IMG/VR virus record: IMGVR_UViG_3300017917_003016
Coordinates: 32,001-96,000 of that record
Origin: a virus
Taxonomy: Duplodnaviria; Caudoviricetes
Reading direction: 5' to 3' (one strand)
Length of the DNA stretch: 64,000 nt
Shown: one piece after another, positions 3,815 through 11,473 of the stretch
How positions within the stretch are numbered: the first letter of the stretch is position 1
How the letters are laid out: every line of letters starts with the position of its first letter
Position numbers and translations under genes: made by a program
The notes under the pieces: model-generated
Databases searched by the model: none
Told to the model about the DNA's origin: nothing
The model's input: the letters and a program-made list of their open reading frames with translations, nothing else

Positions 3815-4852
3815 ATGTCTAAACATCTTAAATTTTTGCTAGTTTATGGCGCTATATTATTTGGCGCCATAAATTATACTAGCATGGAAATTCATCAAAT
3901 ATTTGCCTTGTTGGCAGCACCCGCCTTATGGGCAGTGTTTGAACTAGCAAAAATTACCAATGACGTTAAGGTAAAAATAGCCCAGGCTATAGCCTACAGT
4001 GTAGCCGCCGGCACACTAATTTGGTTTTGGGATCTAAAACTATTTTTAGTAGCCTTGTTTTTAGGTTGGATATTGTTTGGTCTGGGAGTTAGTATTTGCC
4101 TACATAAATGGGCTAGCCATAAAACATTTGTACCTAAAAATAGATTTTACAAATGGTTAATTTTATGGTTTGGAACCATTTGTACACTGGGAAGTACTGT
4201 AAGTTGGGCTGCCGGTCATCGCAAGCATCATCAATATACAGATAAAGAGGGTGATCCTCATAGACCGGCTGGAAATTTCTGGCACAAGGTCAAAGTATAC
4301 TTTTATTATTTTCCCACTTATCACATTAGTCCGATGATCATCAAAGATCTAACGTCAGATGTAGATCATAAGTGGTTTCATAAAAACTATTACATCATAA
4401 TCTACAGTTATGCACTATCTTTGTTAATGATAGGTCCAGAATATTTAGGTTATTTCTATGCATTACCAGTTTTATATGTTTTTACTGGAATTAGTTGGGT
4501 AACTGTCATTGCTCATATTCCCAGCACCGGACGTTTTGGTTATCGAAGTGATACCTATCGAATTTATAACAGCGATGATTATACCTATAATAGCCATGTG
4601 TGGCAATTTCTATTAATGGGGGAAGGATATCATAACACACACCATGCTTGTCCTTGGTTATGGAACAATGCTGTATTGCCAGGGGAATTTGATATTAGTG
4701 CTAAGATTATCAAATTGATTGGCAATCCTTATGATAAACCTCCTAGTCCCTTTGTTGATGTTCGCCGCGGAAAAAAATTGTGGGAAGAAATTGCCATGGT
4801 TAAAGCAAAGAATACAATTGATGACCGTCCGGAAAAACTGCGCGATACTTAA
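3815..4852 (+). CDS. Membrane fatty-acid (delta-9-type) desaturase
   Basis: Three His boxes (HKWASH, HRKHH, GYHNTHH), hydrophobic segments and a GEFD motif near the C-terminus. Confidence 0.9.
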   Translation: MSKHLKFLLVYGAILFGAINYTSMEIHQIFALLAAPALWAVFELAKITNDVKVKIAQAIAYSVAAGTLIWFWDLKLFLVALFLGWILFGLGVSICLHKWASHKTFVPKNRFYKWLILWFGTICTLGSTVSWAAGHRKHHQYTDKEGDPHRPAGNFWHKVKVYFYYFPTYHISPMIIKDLTSDVDHKWFHKNYYIIIYSYALSLLMIGPEYLGYFYALPVLYVFTGISWVTVIAHIPSTGRFGYRSDTYRIYNSDDYTYNSHVWQFLLMGEGYHNTHHACPWLWNNAVLPGEFDISAKIIKLIGNPYDKPPSPFVDVRRGKKLWEEIAMVKAKNTIDDRPEKLRDT

Positions 4853-5560: not shown

Positions 5561-6847
5561 ATGGACTATAAAATAGCAGATATAAATTTAGCCCCATGGG
5601 GACATCGAGAAATAGCCATTGCGGAAACAGAAATGCCGGGGCTAATGAGCGTCCTAGAAGAATATCGCGCCCAGCAACCTCTTAAGGGCGCACGTATAGC
5701 AGGCAGTCTGCACATGACCATACAGACCGCAGTATTGGTCAAGGTTCTAGTTGCATTGGGCGCAGAAGTTCGTTGGTCAAGTTGTAACATTTTTAGTACA
5801 CAAGACCATGCAGCAGCAGCCCTGGCAGATCTAGGTATACCTGTGTTTGCTTGGAAAGGTGAAACAGAAGAAGAATATTGGTGGTGTATAGAACAGACTA
5901 TACAAGGCCCCAACGGTTGGAAGCCCAACATGCTGCTAGATGATGGGCATGATCTTACTTGGTGGGTACATCAGAATCGTCCTGATTTATTAGACAATAT
6001 CATAGGAGTTACAGAAGAAACTACTACAGGTATACATAAGATACGTGAAGCACAGGCCCGCGGCGAGTTCCGCCTGCGTGCTATCAATGTCAACGATTCA
6101 GTAACAAAATCAAAGTTTGACAACCTTTATGGTTGCAGAGAAAGTCTAGTGGACGGCATCAAACGTGCAACAGATGTTATGATTGCTGGTAAGATTGCAG
6201 TGGTTGCAGGATTTGGTGATGTAGGCAAGGGCAGTGCTGCTGCGTTGCGAGCATTGAGTGCCCAGGTCTGGGTAACTGAAATAGATCCTATCTGCGCACT
6301 ACAAGCAGCCATGGAAGGATATCGTGTGGTCACCATGGATTGGGCTGCTGACAAAGCAGACATATTCGTTACTGCCACAGGCAACATCGATGTGATTACA
6401 CACGACCACATGGCAAAGATGAAGCATAACGCCATAGTGTGCAATATAGGCCACTTTGACAGTGAAATTGATATTACTAGCCTAGAAAAGTATGAGTGGG
6501 AAGAAATTAAACCACAGGTTGATCACGTGATATTCCCAGACGGTCGTCGTATTATTGTGCTAGCCAAAGGACGCCTGGTAAATCTAGGCTGTGCAACAGG
6601 GCACCCTAGTTACGTTATGAGTAACAGTTTCACTAATCAGGTCATAGCACAGATAGAACTGTATACCAACTATAAAAATTATGAGGTTGGTGAACTATAT
6701 CTGCTGCCCAAAAATTTAGACGAACTAGTGGCTAAATTACATCTAAAGAAAATTGGTGCAGAGTTAACTAATTTAACCTATGAACAGGCAGAATACATAG
6801 GAGTTGAGGTACATGGCCCATACAAGCCAGACACCTATCGTTATTAG
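5561..6847 (+). CDS. ahcY: S-adenosyl-L-homocysteine hydrolase
   Basis: [53 protein letters not shown] and [13 protein letters not shown] are all intact. Confidence 0.97.
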
Positions 6848-7197: not shown

Positions 7198-7225
7198 AAG
7201 CCCGCTATATGCGGGCTTTTATTTT
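7198..7225 (+). terminator. Rho-independent terminator
   Basis: AAGCCCGC-TATAT-GCGGGCTT followed by TTATTTT. Confidence 0.8.
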
Positions 7226-7232
7226 GATGTTT

Positions 7233-7250
7233 TTGTAATAATAGTGTAAT
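7233..7250 (+). promoter_or_regulatory. Pho-box-like direct repeat
   Basis: TTGTAAT-AATA-GTGTAAT with an 11-bp period; compare the PhoB consensus CTGTCAT-AWAW-CTGTMAY. Confidence 0.55.
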
Positions 7251-7301
7251 TGATTTTCAAGTAAATATAAAGTAAGTTATAAGATTATTGAAAGGGTGTC
7301 G

Positions 7302-7403
7302 ATGATTGAAATTTTCTTAGGAATTCTAGGAGAAGCATTGCAAGAAATAGGGGTATATCTTATGGTTCTTGTTGCTGCATCAATATGGAACATTTCAAAT
7401 TAA
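7302..7403 (+). CDS. Small membrane peptide (33 aa)
   Basis: Manually read MIEIFLGILGEALQEIGVYLMVLVAASIWNISN. Confidence 0.5.
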   Translation: MIEIFLGILGEALQEIGVYLMVLVAASIWNISN

Positions 7404-7427
7404 AAAACAAATTTGTATTTGATTACC

Positions 7428-7457
7428 CAAGGGGTACTGCTTCGGTAGTACCCCTTG
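7428..7457 (+). other. Stable cUUCGg hairpin
   Basis: CAAGGGGTACTGC-TTCG-GTAGTACCCCTTG: 13-bp stem with one G-U pair and no U tract. Confidence 0.75.
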
Positions 7458-7476
7458 TCACATTGTGAGATAAAAA

Positions 7477-8304
7477 ATGGAGCAGAACAAAACATATAAA
7501 ACAATCTGTATATCAGATGTTCACTTGGGCAGCAAAGATTCACAGGCTTCGTTGCTGAATAATTTTCTCAAGAACAACAGTTGCAGCCATCTCTTTTTAG
7601 TAGGGGACATAATCGACGGTTGGAAAATACAACAAAACAAGTGGCGCTGGAAACAGAGCCACTCAAATGTAGTGCGCCGCGTTTTGGGAATGGCTAAACA
7701 CGGTACTAAAGTTACTTACATTACAGGCAACCATGACGAATTTTTAAGACCTTTTGTTACCAATGCATTTTTAATGGGTAATATTACAGTGGTTAATCAG
7801 GCAGAATATCGCGACACTGACGGCAATCTTTATCTGTTAACACATGGCGATATGTTTGATGGAATTACTCGAGCAGCCAAATGGTTAAATCTTCTCGGTG
7901 ACAAAGCCTATGATTTTGTATTGTGGATTAATACACATTTCAATTGGTGGAGGCATAGATTTGGTTTTGGCTATTGGAGCCTAAGTAAATTTCTCAAGCA
8001 CAGAGTAAAACGTGCGGTAAATTTCATTTTTGAATTTGAATCAGTACTAGTCAACTATTGTCGTAAAAGAGGATTTGATGGGGTTATCTGTGGGCACATA
8101 CACACTCCAGAAATAAAAACTATCGATGGGATAAACTACATGAACTGCGGCGATTGGGTAGAAAGTTGTTCTGCCTTGGTAGAACACTGGGATGGCCGTT
8201 GGGAAATAGTCTATTGGACAAAGGAGCAAGAAGATGTGGTTATTGCTTTTAACAGCAGTGCACGTGAACAATCCAAACGACATACCAGCAAAAATGTGGC
8301 TTGA
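7477..8304 (+). CDS. plcP: PlcP-like phospholipase C (LpxH-like metallophosphoesterase)
   Basis: ISDVHLG, VGDIIDGW, GNHDEFLR, HGDMFD, LGDKAYD, YWSLS, ICGHIH and NCGDWVESC motifs; adjacent GT4 gene. Confidence 0.85.
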   Translation: MEQNKTYKTICISDVHLGSKDSQASLLNNFLKNNSCSHLFLVGDIIDGWKIQQNKWRWKQSHSNVVRRVLGMAKHGTKVTYITGNHDEFLRPFVTNAFLMGNITVVNQAEYRDTDGNLYLLTHGDMFDGITRAAKWLNLLGDKAYDFVLWINTHFNWWRHRFGFGYWSLSKFLKHRVKRAVNFIFEFESVLVNYCRKRGFDGVICGHIHTPEIKTIDGINYMNCGDWVESCSALVEHWDGRWEIVYWTKEQEDVVIAFNSSAREQSKRHTSKNVA

Positions 8305-8407
8305 ATTTGAGTCACAAGAATCATGCGAACGTGCTCTTGGCACTATGACTTTTTGGGTTAAATTTCCAGCATTTAAGGTAACAGGAACATGCACAAAAAA
8401 ATCTTAA
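8234..8407 (+). CDS. Small hypothetical protein (57 aa)
   Basis: Manually read MWLLLLTAVHVNNPNDIPAK...GTCTKKS with an AAGGAG RBS; overlaps both neighbours. Confidence 0.55.
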   Translation: MWLLLLTAVHVNNPNDIPAKMWLEFESQESCERALGTMTFWVKFPAFKVTGTCTKKS

Positions 8408-9396
8408 TCATAACTGATAATCTAAGGGACCAAGTAAATGGCGTTGTCACCACGTTCAAAAATCTTGAGAGTCTGGCTGTTCGTTCTGGTTATAGTCTTG
8501 TTTATATTGATCCCGGGCAGTTCCCTCATATTAATTGCCCTGGTTATCCTGAAGTTAAGTTATCCTGGCCTTGGGGTATTGGAAAAAAGATTGCGGCGGT
8601 GGCTCCGGATCATATACATATCGCTACGGAAGGTCCATTAGGCCTTGCTGCCAGAATCTGGTGCGACCGTAATGGCAAGACCTATAACACCAGTTATCAT
8701 ACTAAATTTCCTGAGTTTTTAGAGCGTTTGTATAATTTTCCTCGTTCTTGGTCCTATTGGTATATGCGTTGGTTTCACAAACATTCGGGGAAGGTTCTTA
8801 CTACCACACAAACTATGGTAAGAGAACTTAAATCACATGGATTCAGTGACAATGTCGTAAGTTGGACACGCGGAGTAGATAAAAAAGTCTTTAGCGATAA
8901 ACTAAGAAGCCCAGAAGTAAATGGTCATCCCATATTGTTAAGTGTTGGTCGTGTTAGCCGAGAAAAAGGTCTTGATGATTTTTGTCAATTAGATGTCCCA
9001 AACGCAACCAAAGTAATTGTAGGTAATGGTCCTTATCGTGCAGAATTAGAGAAAAAATATCCTAATGTAATGTTTGCAGGGTCAAAGTTTGAGCATGAAC
9101 TAGCAGAATATTATGCCAATGCTGATGTATTTGTTTTTACTAGCCGTGTGGACACGTTTGGTATAGTAATGATCGAAAGTCTAAGTTGCGGTACTCCTGT
9201 TGCAGCCTATCCTGTGCCGGGCCCGATAGATATCGTTGAAAACGGTGTTAACGGATACCTGTCTGATGATCTAAATCAAGCCATTCAACAGTGTTTGACC
9301 ATAAGTAGAAAGCAGGTTTATAAATCTAGCCAAAAGTGGACTTGGGAAAATTGTTGGCAGATATTTCATGATAACCTTGTGCCTTCTAAATTTTAA
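8389..9396 (+). CDS. agt: GT4 glycosyltransferase, Agt-like glycolipid synthase
   Basis: QVNGVVTT, PGYPEVKL, HIATEGPLG, TSYHTKFPE, GRVSREKG and DTFGIVMIESLSCGTPV motifs. Confidence 0.8.
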   Translation: MHKKILIITDNLRDQVNGVVTTFKNLESLAVRSGYSLVYIDPGQFPHINCPGYPEVKLSWPWGIGKKIAAVAPDHIHIATEGPLGLAARIWCDRNGKTYNTSYHTKFPEFLERLYNFPRSWSYWYMRWFHKHSGKVLTTTQTMVRELKSHGFSDNVVSWTRGVDKKVFSDKLRSPEVNGHPILLSVGRVSREKGLDDFCQLDVPNATKVIVGNGPYRAELEKKYPNVMFAGSKFEHELAEYYANADVFVFTSRVDTFGIVMIESLSCGTPVAAYPVPGPIDIVENGVNGYLSDDLNQAIQQCLTISRKQVYKSSQKWTWENCWQIFHDNLVPSKF

Positions 9397-9453
9397 TGAT
9401 TTCCAGTAAAATTTTTGTTTGACCTTAGGCATAAGTAATTACATAGTAATAAG

Positions 9454-9480
9454 ACAAAACCCACTTGCGTGGGTTTTGTT
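9454..9480 (+). terminator. Rho-independent terminator
   Basis: ACAAAACCCAC-TTGC-GTGGGTTTTGT. Confidence 0.75.
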
Positions 9481-9580: not shown

Positions 9581-9646
9581 ATGTTTGAAATTGTAATCGC
9601 GCTCATAATGGTAGGACTGTTTTGGGCATCATTTGGAAATATTTAA
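9581..9646 (+). CDS. Very small hydrophobic peptide (21 aa)
   Basis: MFEIVIALIMVGLFWASFGNI with an AGGAGA RBS. Confidence 0.45.
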   Translation: MFEIVIALIMVGLFWASFGNI

Positions 9647-9657
9647 AGGAGAAATCA

Positions 9658-10092
9658 ATGAAACTAGTAGGAACAAAGACAGAGCAGCATCTTAAGGACG
9701 CATTTGCAGGTGAATCAAAGGCTAACCGCCGCTATCTATACTTTGCCAACATGGCTGACATTGTAGGCGCACCAGATGTCGCTAACATCTTTCGACATAC
9801 TGCTGAAGGTGAAACCGGCCACGCCCACGGGCATATGGAATACCTAATCAAGGGTGGTTCAGGCGACCCCGAAACTGGCCTTCCGGCCAATGATATCGTT
9901 CAAGCACTGGAAAGTGCTATTCACGGCGAAACACACGAGTACACTGACATGTATCCGAGCATGGCCCGTGATGCACGTGACGAAGGCTTTGACGAAATCG
10001 CTGATTGGTTTGAAACACTGGCCAAGGCAGAGCGCAGCCATGCTGGCAAATTCCAACGCACTCTTGACGCTTTTGTTAAAGAGAACGCATGA
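9658..10092 (+). CDS. rbr: Rubrerythrin (short form without rubredoxin domain)
   Basis: [36 protein letters not shown] and AERSHA di-iron ligands; start moved to the ATG after AAGGAG. Confidence 0.92.
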
Positions 10093-10679
10093 TGCTAACT
10101 CGCGACGACTTATGGAGTTTAGAAGAATATAGTCAGGTTCGCGAGGAATTCAAACCTGCTGCAGCAGCACATCGCAAACTGCGGCAGGTCAGTATTGGCG
10201 ACCATATGACTATTAGTTTTGAAGATCAGTTTACCGTCAAGTATCAGATTCAAGAAATGCTGTTGATAGAAAAAACTTTTACTGCAGAAGGTATTCAAGA
10301 TGAACTTGACGCATACAATCCTCTAATTCCTACAGGCACCAATCTTAAGGCTACACTGTATATTGAGTACAGTGATCCAACAGAGAGAGCACAGCGCCTC
10401 AAAGATCTTAAACGTGTTGAGGATCGAGTTTTTATAAAAGTCGGTAATTATCAAGCAGTCTATGCCATTGCGGACGAAGATATGGATCGAAGTAATCTGG
10501 ACAAGACTAGCGCAGTACATTTTCTAAGATTTGAACTTACTGAGCCAATGATTACAGCCTTAAGACACGGTGTCAACTTGGATGTTGGAGTGAATCATCC
10601 TGCTTATCCTGTGATTGCAACTGTATCTGATCAAACTCGTGATGCGTTAGTGCAGGATTTTGATAAAGAAATTGCTTGA
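10089..10679 (+). CDS. DUF3501 family protein
   Basis: [22 protein letters not shown] and [10 protein letters not shown] motifs; typical rubrerythrin neighbour. Confidence 0.85.
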
Positions 10680-10726: not shown

Positions 10727-11473
10727 TTAATTTGTATTAATACGCATTAATCCTAACATAGCGAAAAACCTAACATACCAATACCCTAGATCAAACTCAA
10801 ACCATTTCATGGCTAGATTTAGTCTGTTAGGATTTAAATGATGGTTTGCATGAAGTTCTTCGCCGGCTAGTAAAATGCCAATTGGGAACATATTTACTGC
10901 TTTTCCTGAATTGGGTAGTTTTACATATCTAAATCCCAACTTATGGGTGCCCCAATCTGCAGTTAAAATAACAATATCTGTTATAAAAAATCGATGGATA
11001 GCACCAATTATAAATCCAGATATACCAAACAGCAGAGTATATATTCCCCACAGGATAGTTAACCCTAACGTTGGGTGTTTTTGATAAAATTGTTCAATTT
11101 GGCTAGTGTCCGTTTTTATTTCGGGAGCATAAGTGGCTAAATCTTTAGGACCGATGAATCGAGGTTTGTTCGGGTCATTATGTTTGTAGTCGAGCAATTC
11201 CCTAAGGGATTGTAAATGAGGACTACACGGGTCTTCTTTTTGATCGCTAAATCTATGATGTTTTCGGTGCAAAGCACACAAATGTTGTTGCCAGTTTTGA
11301 TAGGCTAAGCCCATCACTACCCATAAAATAAACCTAAACACTATTGCTAAATTTTTATCAATAACATATTGCTTATGTATAATCGATCGGTGAACTAGTA
11401 GGCTAAATGTTGCCCATAGAAGATGATAACAAAGAAGAAAAAATAATATAGAGTTTATCACCATTGGATCCAA
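10727..11473 (-). CDS. Second membrane fatty-acid desaturase
   Basis: His boxes HRSIIH, HRKHH and ELHANHH, plus KWFEFDLG. Confidence 0.87.
   Translation of the reverse strand: MDPMVINSILFFLLCYHLLWATFSLLVHRSIIHKQYVIDKNLAIVFRFILWVVMGLAYQNWQQHLCALHRKHHRFSDQKEDPCSPHLQSLRELLDYKHNDPNKPRFIGPKDLATYAPEIKTDTSQIEQFYQKHPTLGLTILWGIYTLLFGISGFIIGAIHRFFITDIVILTADWGTHKLGFRYVKLPNSGKAVNMFPIGILLAGEELHANHHLNPNRLNLAMKWFEFDLGYWYVRFFAMLGLMRINTN

Follow-up and report, generated by a model that had tools for sequence, protein, structure and literature searches.

The segment at positions 7198-9479 of the window, the term used here for the whole 64-kb stretch of viral DNA that was analysed, carries an operon whose products, as inferred from the evidence below, most likely remove phosphate from the phospholipids of the host membrane and turn these into sugar lipids. 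It is considered probable, with good but incomplete confidence, that the operon is an auxiliary metabolic one, through which the phage remodels lipids under phosphate starvation, and that host PhoR/PhoB controls it. Gene content, family placement, synteny, and the conservation and specificity of the regulatory motif were observed directly, and the enzyme activities, PhoB binding and benefit to the phage were inferred. Such a reading had been put forward in a preliminary description of the same DNA and, taken as a whole, has the support that sequence alone can give; the purposes named there, phosphate mining and a change of surface receptors, are inferences that have not been demonstrated.

The window belongs to a 201.7-kb IMG/VR virus record with genes for a terminase large subunit, a phage helicase, and a primase, and the relatives of this phage are complete genomes of 329-367 kb, two of five with direct terminal repeats. 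The unit is carried by a jumbo phage. Comparison of 20 kb of the window with GenBank phages using megablast gave no match. The order of the elements (terminator, Pho box, 11 nt, TAAATA, a 209-nt leader, plcP, a gene for a 57-aa protein, a GT4 glycosyltransferase gene, and terminator; Table 1) is that of a single, cleanly bounded transcription unit, as inferred from the layout. The terminator claimed after the glycosyltransferase gene was located, and in the plus-strand reading of this hairpin the T run sits in the descending arm. Two fatty-acid desaturases are also encoded in the island surrounding the operon, a hint that the tailoring of the membrane is broader.

Table 1. Features of the lipid-remodelling unit and its flanks (window coordinates).
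Feature	Position	Strand	Details or basis
Intrinsic terminator ending the upstream 63-aa gene; bounds the unit on the left	7198-7218	+	8-bp stem with 6 GC pairs, then T-rich tail
Pho box, putative PhoB site in place of the -35 element	7233-7250	+	TTGTAAT (7233-7239), AATA spacer, GTGTAAT (7244-7250)
-10-like hexamer TAAATA	7262-7267	+	11 nt past the end of the box
33-codon hydrophobic leader ORF, gene status doubtful	7302-7403	+	Translation
13-bp hairpin with UUCG loop, no U tract	7428-7457	+	Folding; 20 nt ahead of plcP
plcP, 275 aa, LpxH-like binuclear metallophosphoesterase, predicted intracellular phospholipase C	7477-8304	+	Pfam, NCBIfam, motifs, tree, model
Virus-specific 57-aa gene	8234-8407	+	42 distinct homologues; no family assignment
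agt-like GT4 glycosyltransferase, 335 aa, predicted glycosyl-diacylglycerol synthesis	8389-9396	+	Pfam, plcP-linked synteny, model, fold neighbours
Operon-closing terminator-type GC hairpin	9454-9479	+	11-bp stem; scan called minus strand

The phosphoesterase ORF and the three motifs by which it had been recognised, LGDKAYD (residues 140-146), YWS (166-168), and GDWVESC (225-231), are present, and the motif columns are invariant or nearly so in an alignment of 52 family sequences. The protein was assigned to Pfam Metallophos (53 bits). The DxH, GD, GNHD, HGD, and GHIH motifs are invariant in the family alignment, and residues D14, H16, D44, N85, H86, H123, H207, and H209 are so in all 52 viral and cellular members. 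The core of the protein stops near residue 250; the tail (residues 250-275) is disordered and extends into the next gene. The structural model (pLDDT 83) retrieved LpxH as each of its top 25 PDB matches, at 16-20% identity. LpxH is the closest named family as well as the closest solved fold, sharing the calcineurin-like binuclear metallophosphoesterase domain and a helical lipid-binding cap after HGD; moreover, the homologues in Pelagibacter phage Mosig and in S-SRM01 are annotated as LpxH in their records, and surveys of auxiliary metabolic genes (AMGs) place viral lpxH under LPS biosynthesis (PMC10653327, PMC9611531). These points favour a phage LpxH (UDP-2,3-diacylglucosamine diphosphatase) that, with the glycosyltransferase, modifies lipid A or LPS synthesis. 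That assignment is nevertheless very improbable, as the protein falls far under the curated cut-offs, scoring 44.6 bits (43.1 bits in the genome search) against the 134-bit cut-off of the LpxH equivalog NF003743 and 31.9 bits against the 190-bit cut-off of TIGR01854, and phmmer found no LpxH structure at E <= 0.01.

Phylogeny and paralogy tell further against LpxH. The tree separated LpxH from a PlcP-type clade, made up of LpxH paralogues adjoining agt-like genes, with 100/100 support; all viral sequences fell in the latter, and 16 LpxH rows were divided from the window esterase by a branch of approximately 10 substitutions per site. Grouping with LpxH, which the preliminary description had named as part of a refuting outcome, was not seen. 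The viral proteins, including that of Mosig, formed a clade of their own (98/94 support). The trees comprised unnamed cellular homologues and E. coli K-12 LpxH, with no named characterised PlcP or Agt included. Members of the esterase family are also found together with true LpxH within single genomes: among 121 gammaproteobacterial genomes, 115 encode true LpxH and approximately 22 have a second paralogue at 37-56 bits, a range that includes the viral score, and the metagenome-assembled genome from which the closest cellular-labelled homologue comes encodes an LpxH of its own (290 bits). Homologues 42-53% identical to the window protein are encoded in 109 of 301 alphaproteobacterial genomes, and Alphaproteobacteria use LpxI rather than LpxH. 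Finally, the adjoining gene is agt-like and is not an lpx gene. PlcP rather than LpxH, as originally proposed, is thus borne out by curated cut-offs, same-genome paralogy, and the tree split, and the window esterase is best described as a PlcP-type LpxH paralogue whose phospholipase activity is inferred. Alignments with alphaproteobacterial homologues that have agt downstream gave E values of 1e-59 to 1e-88, no named characterised PlcP being compared; the published criterion for PlcP is a BLASTP E value below 1e-40 to the Phaeobacter MED193 protein (PMC4796936).

The GT4 glycosyltransferase expected downstream was confirmed by Pfam Glyco_transf_4 and Glycos_transf_1 matches, and its model (pLDDT 94) has GT-B secondary structure with both Rossmann-like domains. 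A homologue lies directly downstream on the same strand in 28 of 29 alphaproteobacterial plcP loci, and many of the gammaproteobacterial LpxH paralogues have one directly downstream as well; the window enzyme is 38-46% identical to the glycosyltransferases directly downstream of cellular plcP. When five cellular genomes were searched, the top genome-wide match was the plcP-adjacent glycosyltransferase in every one (257-326 bits), and unlinked GT4 proteins scored at most 67 bits, with the exception of a second copy in one genome (247 bits). The nearest Swiss-Prot folds are MgtA (TM 0.91), SQD2, PimC, and alpha-monoglucosyl-diacylglycerol synthases, all of which glycosylate diacylglycerol or glycolipids. 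Plant SQD2 and the actinobacterial MgtA/PimB-type enzymes, the best fold matches (TM by query 0.83-0.91), likewise use such acceptors, but at 21-25% identity and with other donors (GDP-mannose, UDP-sulfoquinovose) they are not orthologues of the window protein. The Agt-type assignment made earlier is supported by this synteny, by the top matches, and by the lipid-acceptor fold neighbours, and the enzyme is an orthologue of the plcP-linked bacterial glycosyltransferase. It is predicted to make glucosyl- and/or glucuronosyl-diacylglycerol, with donor and acceptor use inferred, and its specificity cannot be read from sequence. Orthology of the viral proteins to the characterised PlcP and Agt enzymes rests on synteny and class-level distribution.

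The module had been described as a pair of genes. Both enzymes are present, but a conserved gene between them, for a 57-aa protein, had been missed; it shares 71 nt with the end of plcP and 19 nt with the start of the glycosyltransferase gene. The 42 distinct homologues have a mean column identity of 69% and ten invariant columns, including two cysteines. Conservation is confined to viruses, with none at cellular loci, in Mosig, or in S-SRM01; no Pfam, NCBIfam, or PHROG match was obtained, and ESM Atlas neighbours were viral hypothetical proteins only.

Bacterial counterparts of the unit are known as the 'type 2' plcP-agt arrangement (PMC4796936); in these systems PhoB induces PlcP, which releases diacylglycerol, and the products of Agt are glucosyl- and glucuronosyl-diacylglycerol (PMC3972451, PMC4796936). 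The phage unit has the same families, order, and strand as the bacterial operon (Sinorhizobium PlcP; Agrobacterium and SAR11 HTCC7211 Agt), keeps all catalytic motifs, and is likewise preceded by a Pho-box-like repeat; phage and cellular PlcP are 42-55% identical. It differs in being phage-borne, in a PlcP that belongs to a viral clade, in the gene inserted between the enzymes, in a glycosyltransferase slot filled by either GT4 or GT2/GT21 among phage relatives, and in an mRNA that is apparently leaderless in most of these relatives.

The E. coli Pho box consensus is a CTGTCAT half-site repeated with a 4-bp spacer and an 11-bp period, located approximately 10 bp upstream of the -10 element, where it replaces the -35 element. 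The direct repeat claimed for the window was read from the sequence with its 11-bp period, and each half agrees with CTGTCAT at 5 of 7 positions. That a Pho box stands ahead of plcP is correct, although not immediately ahead, as it is 227 nt upstream of the start codon. The pattern TGTMAY-N5-TGTMAY occurs once in the window and nowhere else in the 201.7-kb record; the single window match is unremarkable taken alone, since 30 of 100 shuffles also gave at least one. Conservation of the motif among relatives is far beyond chance. Each complete relative has 1-2 sites, one of which precedes plcP in four of five genomes, and in a first set of viral relatives 33 of 80 have the motif upstream of plcP, as do 22 of 60 in an independent set, corresponding to 2.75 per kb upstream of plcP versus 0.013 per kb elsewhere and to 2.4 per kb versus 0.03, respectively. 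The exact motif is present in only 37-41% of relatives, the rest having one-mismatch variants or another upstream context. Upstream of viral pstS it was found at 58 of 80 loci (4.8 per kb versus 0.005 per kb), and one relative has just two sites, one ahead of plcP and the other ahead of a bona fide pstS (391.6 bits; cut-off 339 bits). A search with one pstS query found no such gene in the 201.7-kb record or in four of the five complete relatives. The 11-nt spacing from box to TAAATA recurs in 20 of 30 distinct plcP promoters and 31 of 40 distinct pstS promoters of relatives, and a second class has 21-22 nt. That viral pstS has the same motif ahead of it, equally spaced from an identical -10 element, thus supports the Pho-box reading, for which there are no PhoB-binding data.

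The direct repeats might instead be the operator of a phage regulator or mark a phage sigma-factor promoter class, with expression set by the infection programme and not by host phosphate. TAAATA is a poor sigma-70 -10 element and is closer to the T4-type late promoter core than to TATAAT, so that a phage sigma factor could be involved; the host, and hence its PhoB consensus, is unknown, and one study warns that computational prediction of Pho boxes in phages is a poor guide to PhoB binding, such predictions having failed in experiments (PMC10976474). Against this, the half-sites (TGT-A/C-A-Y versus CTGTCAT), the 4-bp A/T-rich spacer, the 11-bp period, and the position one turn upstream of the -10 element all fit a proteobacterial Pho box, and the genes behind the motif, plcP and pstS, are both classical Pho-regulon genes. 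The motif is not a promoter class because there are only 1-2 sites per 329-367 kb genome. The strict pattern was absent upstream of 50 cellular plcP homologues, and looser GTCAT/TGTCAT repeats were seen by inspection upstream of many of them. Control by something other than PhoB is accordingly judged quite unlikely. TAAATA was also considered as a general phage promoter class in its own right and rejected, as the hexamer is under-represented in the genome (156 observed versus 248 expected) and the repeat motif is unique. Regulation of phage genes through a Pho box has a precedent in cyanophage pstS and phoA under host PhoBR control (PMC10976474), and relatives of the window phage have pstS behind the same box as plcP; in the window, however, the cargo is lipid remodelling and not phosphate uptake, and the box is of the proteobacterial TGTCAT type, whereas the cyanophage box is of the cyanobacterial PyTTAAPyPy(T/A) type.

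The leader is not conserved, and neither it nor its 33-codon ORF had a counterpart in 140 related viral loci (tblastn, blastn); plcP mRNA of most relatives is apparently leaderless. An Rfam scan of the leader gave no family at the gathering score, sub-threshold Trp_leader matches corresponding only to the terminator hairpin. The 81-nt segment at 7400-7480, which contains the UUCG hairpin, folds at -26.6 kcal/mol (z = -4.51; a stability that no shuffle out of 200 reached). This hairpin, which was not among the calls of the terminator scan, could have a role in RNA stability or processing or as an attenuator, limiting read-through to plcP.

The proposed sequence of events is as follows. In a phosphate-starved host, phosphorylated PhoB would bind the repeats at 7233-7250 and recruit RNA polymerase, the repeats substituting for a -35 box at a distance of one helical turn from the downstream -10 element TAAATA. 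Judging from the layout, the transcript would run through the genome-specific leader, plcP, the 57-aa gene, and agt, ending at the 9454-9479 hairpin. By analogy with bacterial PlcP, the phage enzyme, cytoplasmic and membrane-associated, would cleave host glycerophospholipids to diacylglycerol and a phospho-alcohol, from which host phosphatases may free phosphate for phage nucleotide synthesis. The GT4 enzyme, if it acts as bacterial Agt does, would use a UDP-sugar to turn diacylglycerol into a phosphorus-free glycolipid, the bilayer staying intact until lysis. The 57-aa protein would act as an accessory found only in viruses, its role being unknown.

It is also conceivable, though unlikely, that the enzymes act as proposed but for a purpose other than phosphate economy, such as membrane or envelope remodelling against superinfection or at receptors, or preparation for lysis, or else that the glycosyltransferase modifies a non-lipid acceptor. 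Three reports describe lipid remodelling as altering predator-prey and phage interactions (PMC9457565, PMC9938194, PMC9804370); the neighbouring desaturases are in keeping with such a purpose, as is the fact that GT4 specificity is not legible in the sequence. On the other side, the gene with which plcP specifically shares its regulatory motif is pstS, the hallmark of phosphate uptake, phoH follows plcP in one relative, plcP of Mosig is divergent from pstS, and the glycosyltransferase is an orthologue of the plcP-linked one. Such purposes are compatible with phosphate mining, and both could hold.

The search of viral databases for the gene pair, suggested in the preliminary description, found that it recurs. 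A plcP of the window type is present in at least 589 IMG/VR contigs, where a GT4 or GT2 glycosyltransferase nearly always follows; the slot after viral plcP was occupied by a GT4 or GT2/GT21-type enzyme at 64 of 74 assessable loci in the first set and at 54 of 58 in the independent set. The same module is found in hundreds of other phage genomes, including complete ones of 329-367 kb, and its first gene has been given a lipid A label in surveys. Mosig, a cultured SAR11 phage, also carries plcP. No paper describing a phage plcP was found in the literature search, in agreement with the earlier statement that the module had not been characterised in a phage. A wider joint reading, which is not excluded by the evidence, appears to us evenly poised between right and wrong: plcP, the virus-only 57-aa protein, and an interchangeable GT4/GT2 under a host PhoB box would form a widespread, vertically inherited system of freshwater jumbo phages, present in part in the cultured SAR11 phage, that converts membrane phospholipid phosphorus to phage nucleotide phosphorus in phosphate-starved hosts as glycolipids replace the bilayer. 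The 57-aa protein, for which there are no binding data, would be a new viral PlcP regulator or subunit, the viral 'lpxH' AMGs of surveys would be mislabelled, and viruses would add directly to the glycolipid signal of phosphate-poor waters.

Known phage responses to phosphorus limitation involve uptake and housekeeping genes (pstS, phoA, phoH), and the membrane is among the largest phosphorus pools of the cell after nucleic acids. The module would mobilise the host's own membrane, swapping in sugar lipids, a route unlike those three. If this is true, lipid remodelling would become the assigned function of an AMG that recurs in viruses under the label 'LPS biosynthesis (lpxH)', and comparison of the viral plcP and pstS promoters would, if these are correctly read, define a phage-borne Pho box with unusual clarity. 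Mosig offers a laboratory system. Lipid remodelling is reported to alter how susceptible cells are to grazers and phages, and by triggering it a virus could therefore shift secondary infection and the flow of carbon and phosphorus in phosphate-poor lakes and oceans.

The 201,732-bp IMG/VR virus record, which was estimated by CheckV to be 56% complete and of which the window comprises bases 32001-96000, carries genes for the terminase large subunit (63 bits; cut-off 22 bits), phage-type helicases, a primase, and DnaB. Five complete relatives with the gene of interest are 329-367 kb in size (96-100% complete), and two of them have direct terminal repeats. Based on these phage genes and on the size of the relatives, the element was classified as a jumbo phage. 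Re-reading of the sequence confirmed the coordinates and protein motifs of the preliminary description. Its gene list was correct for the two enzymes, a metallophosphoesterase (plcP) and a GT4 glycosyltransferase (GT), and had left out the 57-aa gene; the long leader had also been missed. The leader, with its 33-codon ORF and UUCG hairpin, was found in the window genome alone among 140 relatives, and co-transcription through the hairpin is inferred. Short hydrophobic ORFs unrelated to the leader ORF are located at the same place in four homologous loci (L056, L030, L034, and L038).

Features of the operon (window positions) and of the alternative glycosyltransferase genes at fetched homologous loci (L-numbers)
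Feature	Position	Strand	Remark
Left terminator hairpin	7198-7218	+	hairpin at unit boundary
Direct repeat TTGTAAT-AATA-GTGTAAT	7233-7250	+	
TAAATA	7262-7267	+	11 nt past direct repeat
Leader, 209 nt	7268-7476	+	between TAAATA and plcP
33-codon hydrophobic ORF	7302-7403	+	in leader
UUCG hairpin, strong	7428-7457	+	81-nt segment around hairpin, z = -4.5
Metallophosphoesterase (plcP), 275 aa	7477-8304	+	
57-aa ORF	8234-8407	+	overlaps plcP and GT4
GT4 glycosyltransferase, 335 aa	8389-9396	+	
Right terminator hairpin	9454-9479	+	unit boundary
GT2/GT21-type genes in GT slot	L015:5901-6620, L013:5895-6602, L074:5904-6620, about 50 other viral loci		

Fatty-acid desaturase genes lie on both sides of the operon (window 3815-4852, +, and 10727-11473, -), and an S-adenosylhomocysteine hydrolase gene (5561-6847), rubrerythrin and DUF3501 (9622-10679), and genes for a methyltransferase, a cytidylyltransferase, a hexapeptide transferase, and an NAD epimerase/dehydratase are found nearby. 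These surroundings constitute a metabolic island that includes several genes for membrane lipids.

Viral plcP homologues have been labelled LpxH, the lipid A-pathway UDP-2,3-diacylglucosamine diphosphatase, and the top 25 PDB matches of the AlphaFold model of the esterase (pLDDT 83) were all LpxH, at 16-20% identity. The two NCBIfam LpxH equivalogs matched the esterase at 44.6 and 31.9 bits, below their cut-offs of 134 and 190; a phmmer search of the esterase against solved structures gave no match, and its family profile reached LpxH structures merely at E = 1e-11 to 1e-7. True LpxH was present in 115 of 121 sampled gammaproteobacterial genomes (134-333 bits), and about 22 of the 121 encode beside it a second paralogue that scores in the range of the viral protein (37-56 bits), is 34-54% identical to it, and in many cases precedes a gene homologous to the window GT. 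Alphaproteobacteria make lipid A via LpxI, not LpxH; an esterase homologue (E <= 1e-8) was detected in 109 of 301 alphaproteobacterial genomes, the full-length ones being 42-53% identical.

A maximum-likelihood tree was constructed from 104 sequences, which included 16 LpxH rows (E. coli K-12 LpxH among them) and no named characterised PlcP or Agt sequences. The LpxH rows were split from all other rows with support of 100/100 by a branch of about ten substitutions per site. The window esterase, for which a phylogeny had been proposed as a check in the preliminary description, fell outside them and grouped with 36 IMG/VR sequences and Pelagibacter phage Mosig to form a viral clade supported at 98/94. 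This clade also includes a 2,662-bp plcP-GT contig (L003) binned into a Competibacteraceae MAG; because the same MAG has its own LpxH elsewhere (290 bits), the contig is probably a mis-binned phage fragment, or a prophage. The metal-binding motifs DxH, GD, GNHD, HGD, and GHIH were invariant across viral and cellular members in the family alignment, and the LGDKAYD, YWS, and GDWVESC blocks contain invariant or near-invariant residues. An LpxH identity is made very unlikely by the sub-cut-off scores, the paralogy beside a coexisting true LpxH, and the 100/100 tree separation. On sequence grounds the esterase is PlcP-type, as had been proposed; its phospholipase activity is inferred. The freshwater cyanophage Synechococcus phage S-SRM01 (L168:4004-4708) encodes a PlcP-type clade member that is divergent (38% identity, long branch), has no adjoining GT, and is annotated as LpxH.

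A GT4 that is 34-44% identical to the window GT lies directly 3' of plcP on the same strand in 28 of 29 alphaproteobacterial homologues. The plcP-adjacent gene was the best window-GT match in all five whole cellular genomes compared (257-326 bits), one of which also contains another copy that scored 247 bits; the remaining GT4s scored no more than 67 bits. The window GT gave a confident model (pLDDT 94), whose nearest Swiss-Prot folds are lipid-acceptor enzymes of family GT4: Corynebacterium MgtA was closest (TM 0.91), and other near folds were mycobacterial MgtA and PimC, Arabidopsis SQD2, and the Streptococcus and Acholeplasma alpha-monoglucosyl-DAG synthases. The Agt-type assignment made earlier was upheld by the synteny, the best matches, and these fold neighbours, and the window GT is regarded, from sequence comparison, as an orthologue of the plcP-linked Agt-type enzyme, with its activity inferred. 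The order plcP then agt is the ‘type 2’ arrangement of Sebastian et al. (PMC4796936), and the phage operon has its putative GT4 orthologue in the same place and on the same strand. The SAR11 GT of this arrangement yields monoglucosyl- and glucuronosyl-diacylglycerol in E. coli (PMC4796936), and the donors of Agrobacterium Agt (Atu2297) are UDP-glucose and UDP-glucuronate (PMC3972451).

Close relatives of plcP were found on at least 589 IMG/VR contigs (560 in another search). The gene pair, for which a search of viral databases had been suggested, was recurrent: a glycosyltransferase directly follows plcP in 64 of 74 assessable loci of a first set and in 54 of 58 of an independent set. The slot is occupied by a GT4 in 36 and 27 loci, respectively, and by a GT2/GT21-type enzyme of about 238 aa in 28 and 27. 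The processive DAG glycosyltransferase Pgt belongs to GT21. The exchange is interpreted as non-orthologous replacement, which argues that selection acts on the function ‘glycolipid from diacylglycerol’. The 57-aa gene between the enzymes is a viral feature that distinguishes these operons from cellular plcP-agt loci: it is represented by 42 distinct sequences with a mean identity of 69% per column, has a hydrophobic N-terminus and two invariant Cys (consensus MWLLILIAVHxNNPxDxPGRIELxF...C...LKFxSFKVEGxC), is missing from every cellular locus, Mosig, and S-SRM01, and has only viral hypothetical proteins as ESM Atlas neighbours. A disordered PlcP tail (residues 250-275) occurs only in genomes with the 57-aa gene.

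The motif TGTMAY-N5-TGTMAY has one match in the window and one in the whole 201.7-kb record. It occurs in exact form within 150 nt upstream of plcP in 33 of the 80 closest viral plcP loci, at 2.75 per kb upstream of plcP versus 0.013 per kb elsewhere, and the flanking sequence and upstream gene vary widely among these loci; the independent set gave 22 of 60 (2.4 versus 0.03 per kb). The motif is present once or twice per genome in the five complete relatives, not above the reversed control; in four of them plcP has one of these sites as its promoter, and one relative has two sites, preceding plcP and pstS (PstS equivalog 391.6 bits, cut-off 339). Exact matches were also located upstream of 58 of 80 viral pstS genes (4.8 versus 0.005 per kb). 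The Pho box proposed earlier is supported by this specific recurrence, and the two genes concerned are the most typical Pho-regulon cargoes. In E. coli PhoB promoters, the box takes the place of the -35 element and consists of 7-bp repeats spaced by 4 bp of A/T. By analogy, the geometry of the viral box matches that of a proteobacterial PhoB promoter; PhoB binding is inferred. The box and the E. coli-type PstS of the relatives suggest that the host is probably proteobacterial.

The frequency of TAAATA was checked following the idea of TATAAATA-type late promoters. TAAATA lies 11 nt past the box in 20 of 30 distinct plcP promoters and 31 of 40 distinct pstS promoters, with a distance of 21-22 nt, one helical turn more, in a minority. 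TAAATA is poor as a sigma-70 -10 element. The plcP start codon is just 4-7 nt past TAAATA in most relatives (loci L005-L084), which implies a leaderless mRNA; viral pstS behind the same box has a leader with AAGGAG. The pstS and plcP homologues of Mosig are divergently transcribed from a 150-nt intergenic region (L001:5857-6006), where TTAAC repeats with an 11-bp period resemble the cyanobacterial-type Pho box, not the TGTCAT type. One viral relative has phoH directly 3' of plcP (L011:5830-6573), and phoH of the window genome (G000:C1:192237-192860, -, on the contig of its own record) is without the motif. Host PhoBR controls phage pstS in cyanophages, and predicted phage Pho boxes are not always PhoB-bound (PMC10976474).

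No paper joining plcP with auxiliary metabolic genes (AMGs) was found by full-text literature searches. As far as titles and abstracts indicate, phage-encoded plcP is not described in any plcP and phage paper among the matches listed, the best-ranked papers concerning host lipid remodelling and phage attachment, which agrees with the preliminary description of the module as uncharacterised in a phage. The plcP homologue of Mosig goes unmentioned in its genome announcement, and viral homologues have been deposited or reported as LpxH or LPS biosynthesis genes. Because of this labelling and the absence of phage plcP from that literature, the operon was rated as a new, phage-borne form both of a known bacterial system and of the phage AMGs already known to be under Pho control. 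Most likely it is a PhoB-activated operon for phospholipid-to-glycolipid conversion, its activities and any fitness effect being inferred. PhoB would activate the operon, PlcP would cleave host phospholipids to diacylglycerol and phospho-alcohols, and the GT would rebuild phosphorus-free glycolipids, so that phosphorus would be freed for phage DNA synthesis and the membrane kept intact.
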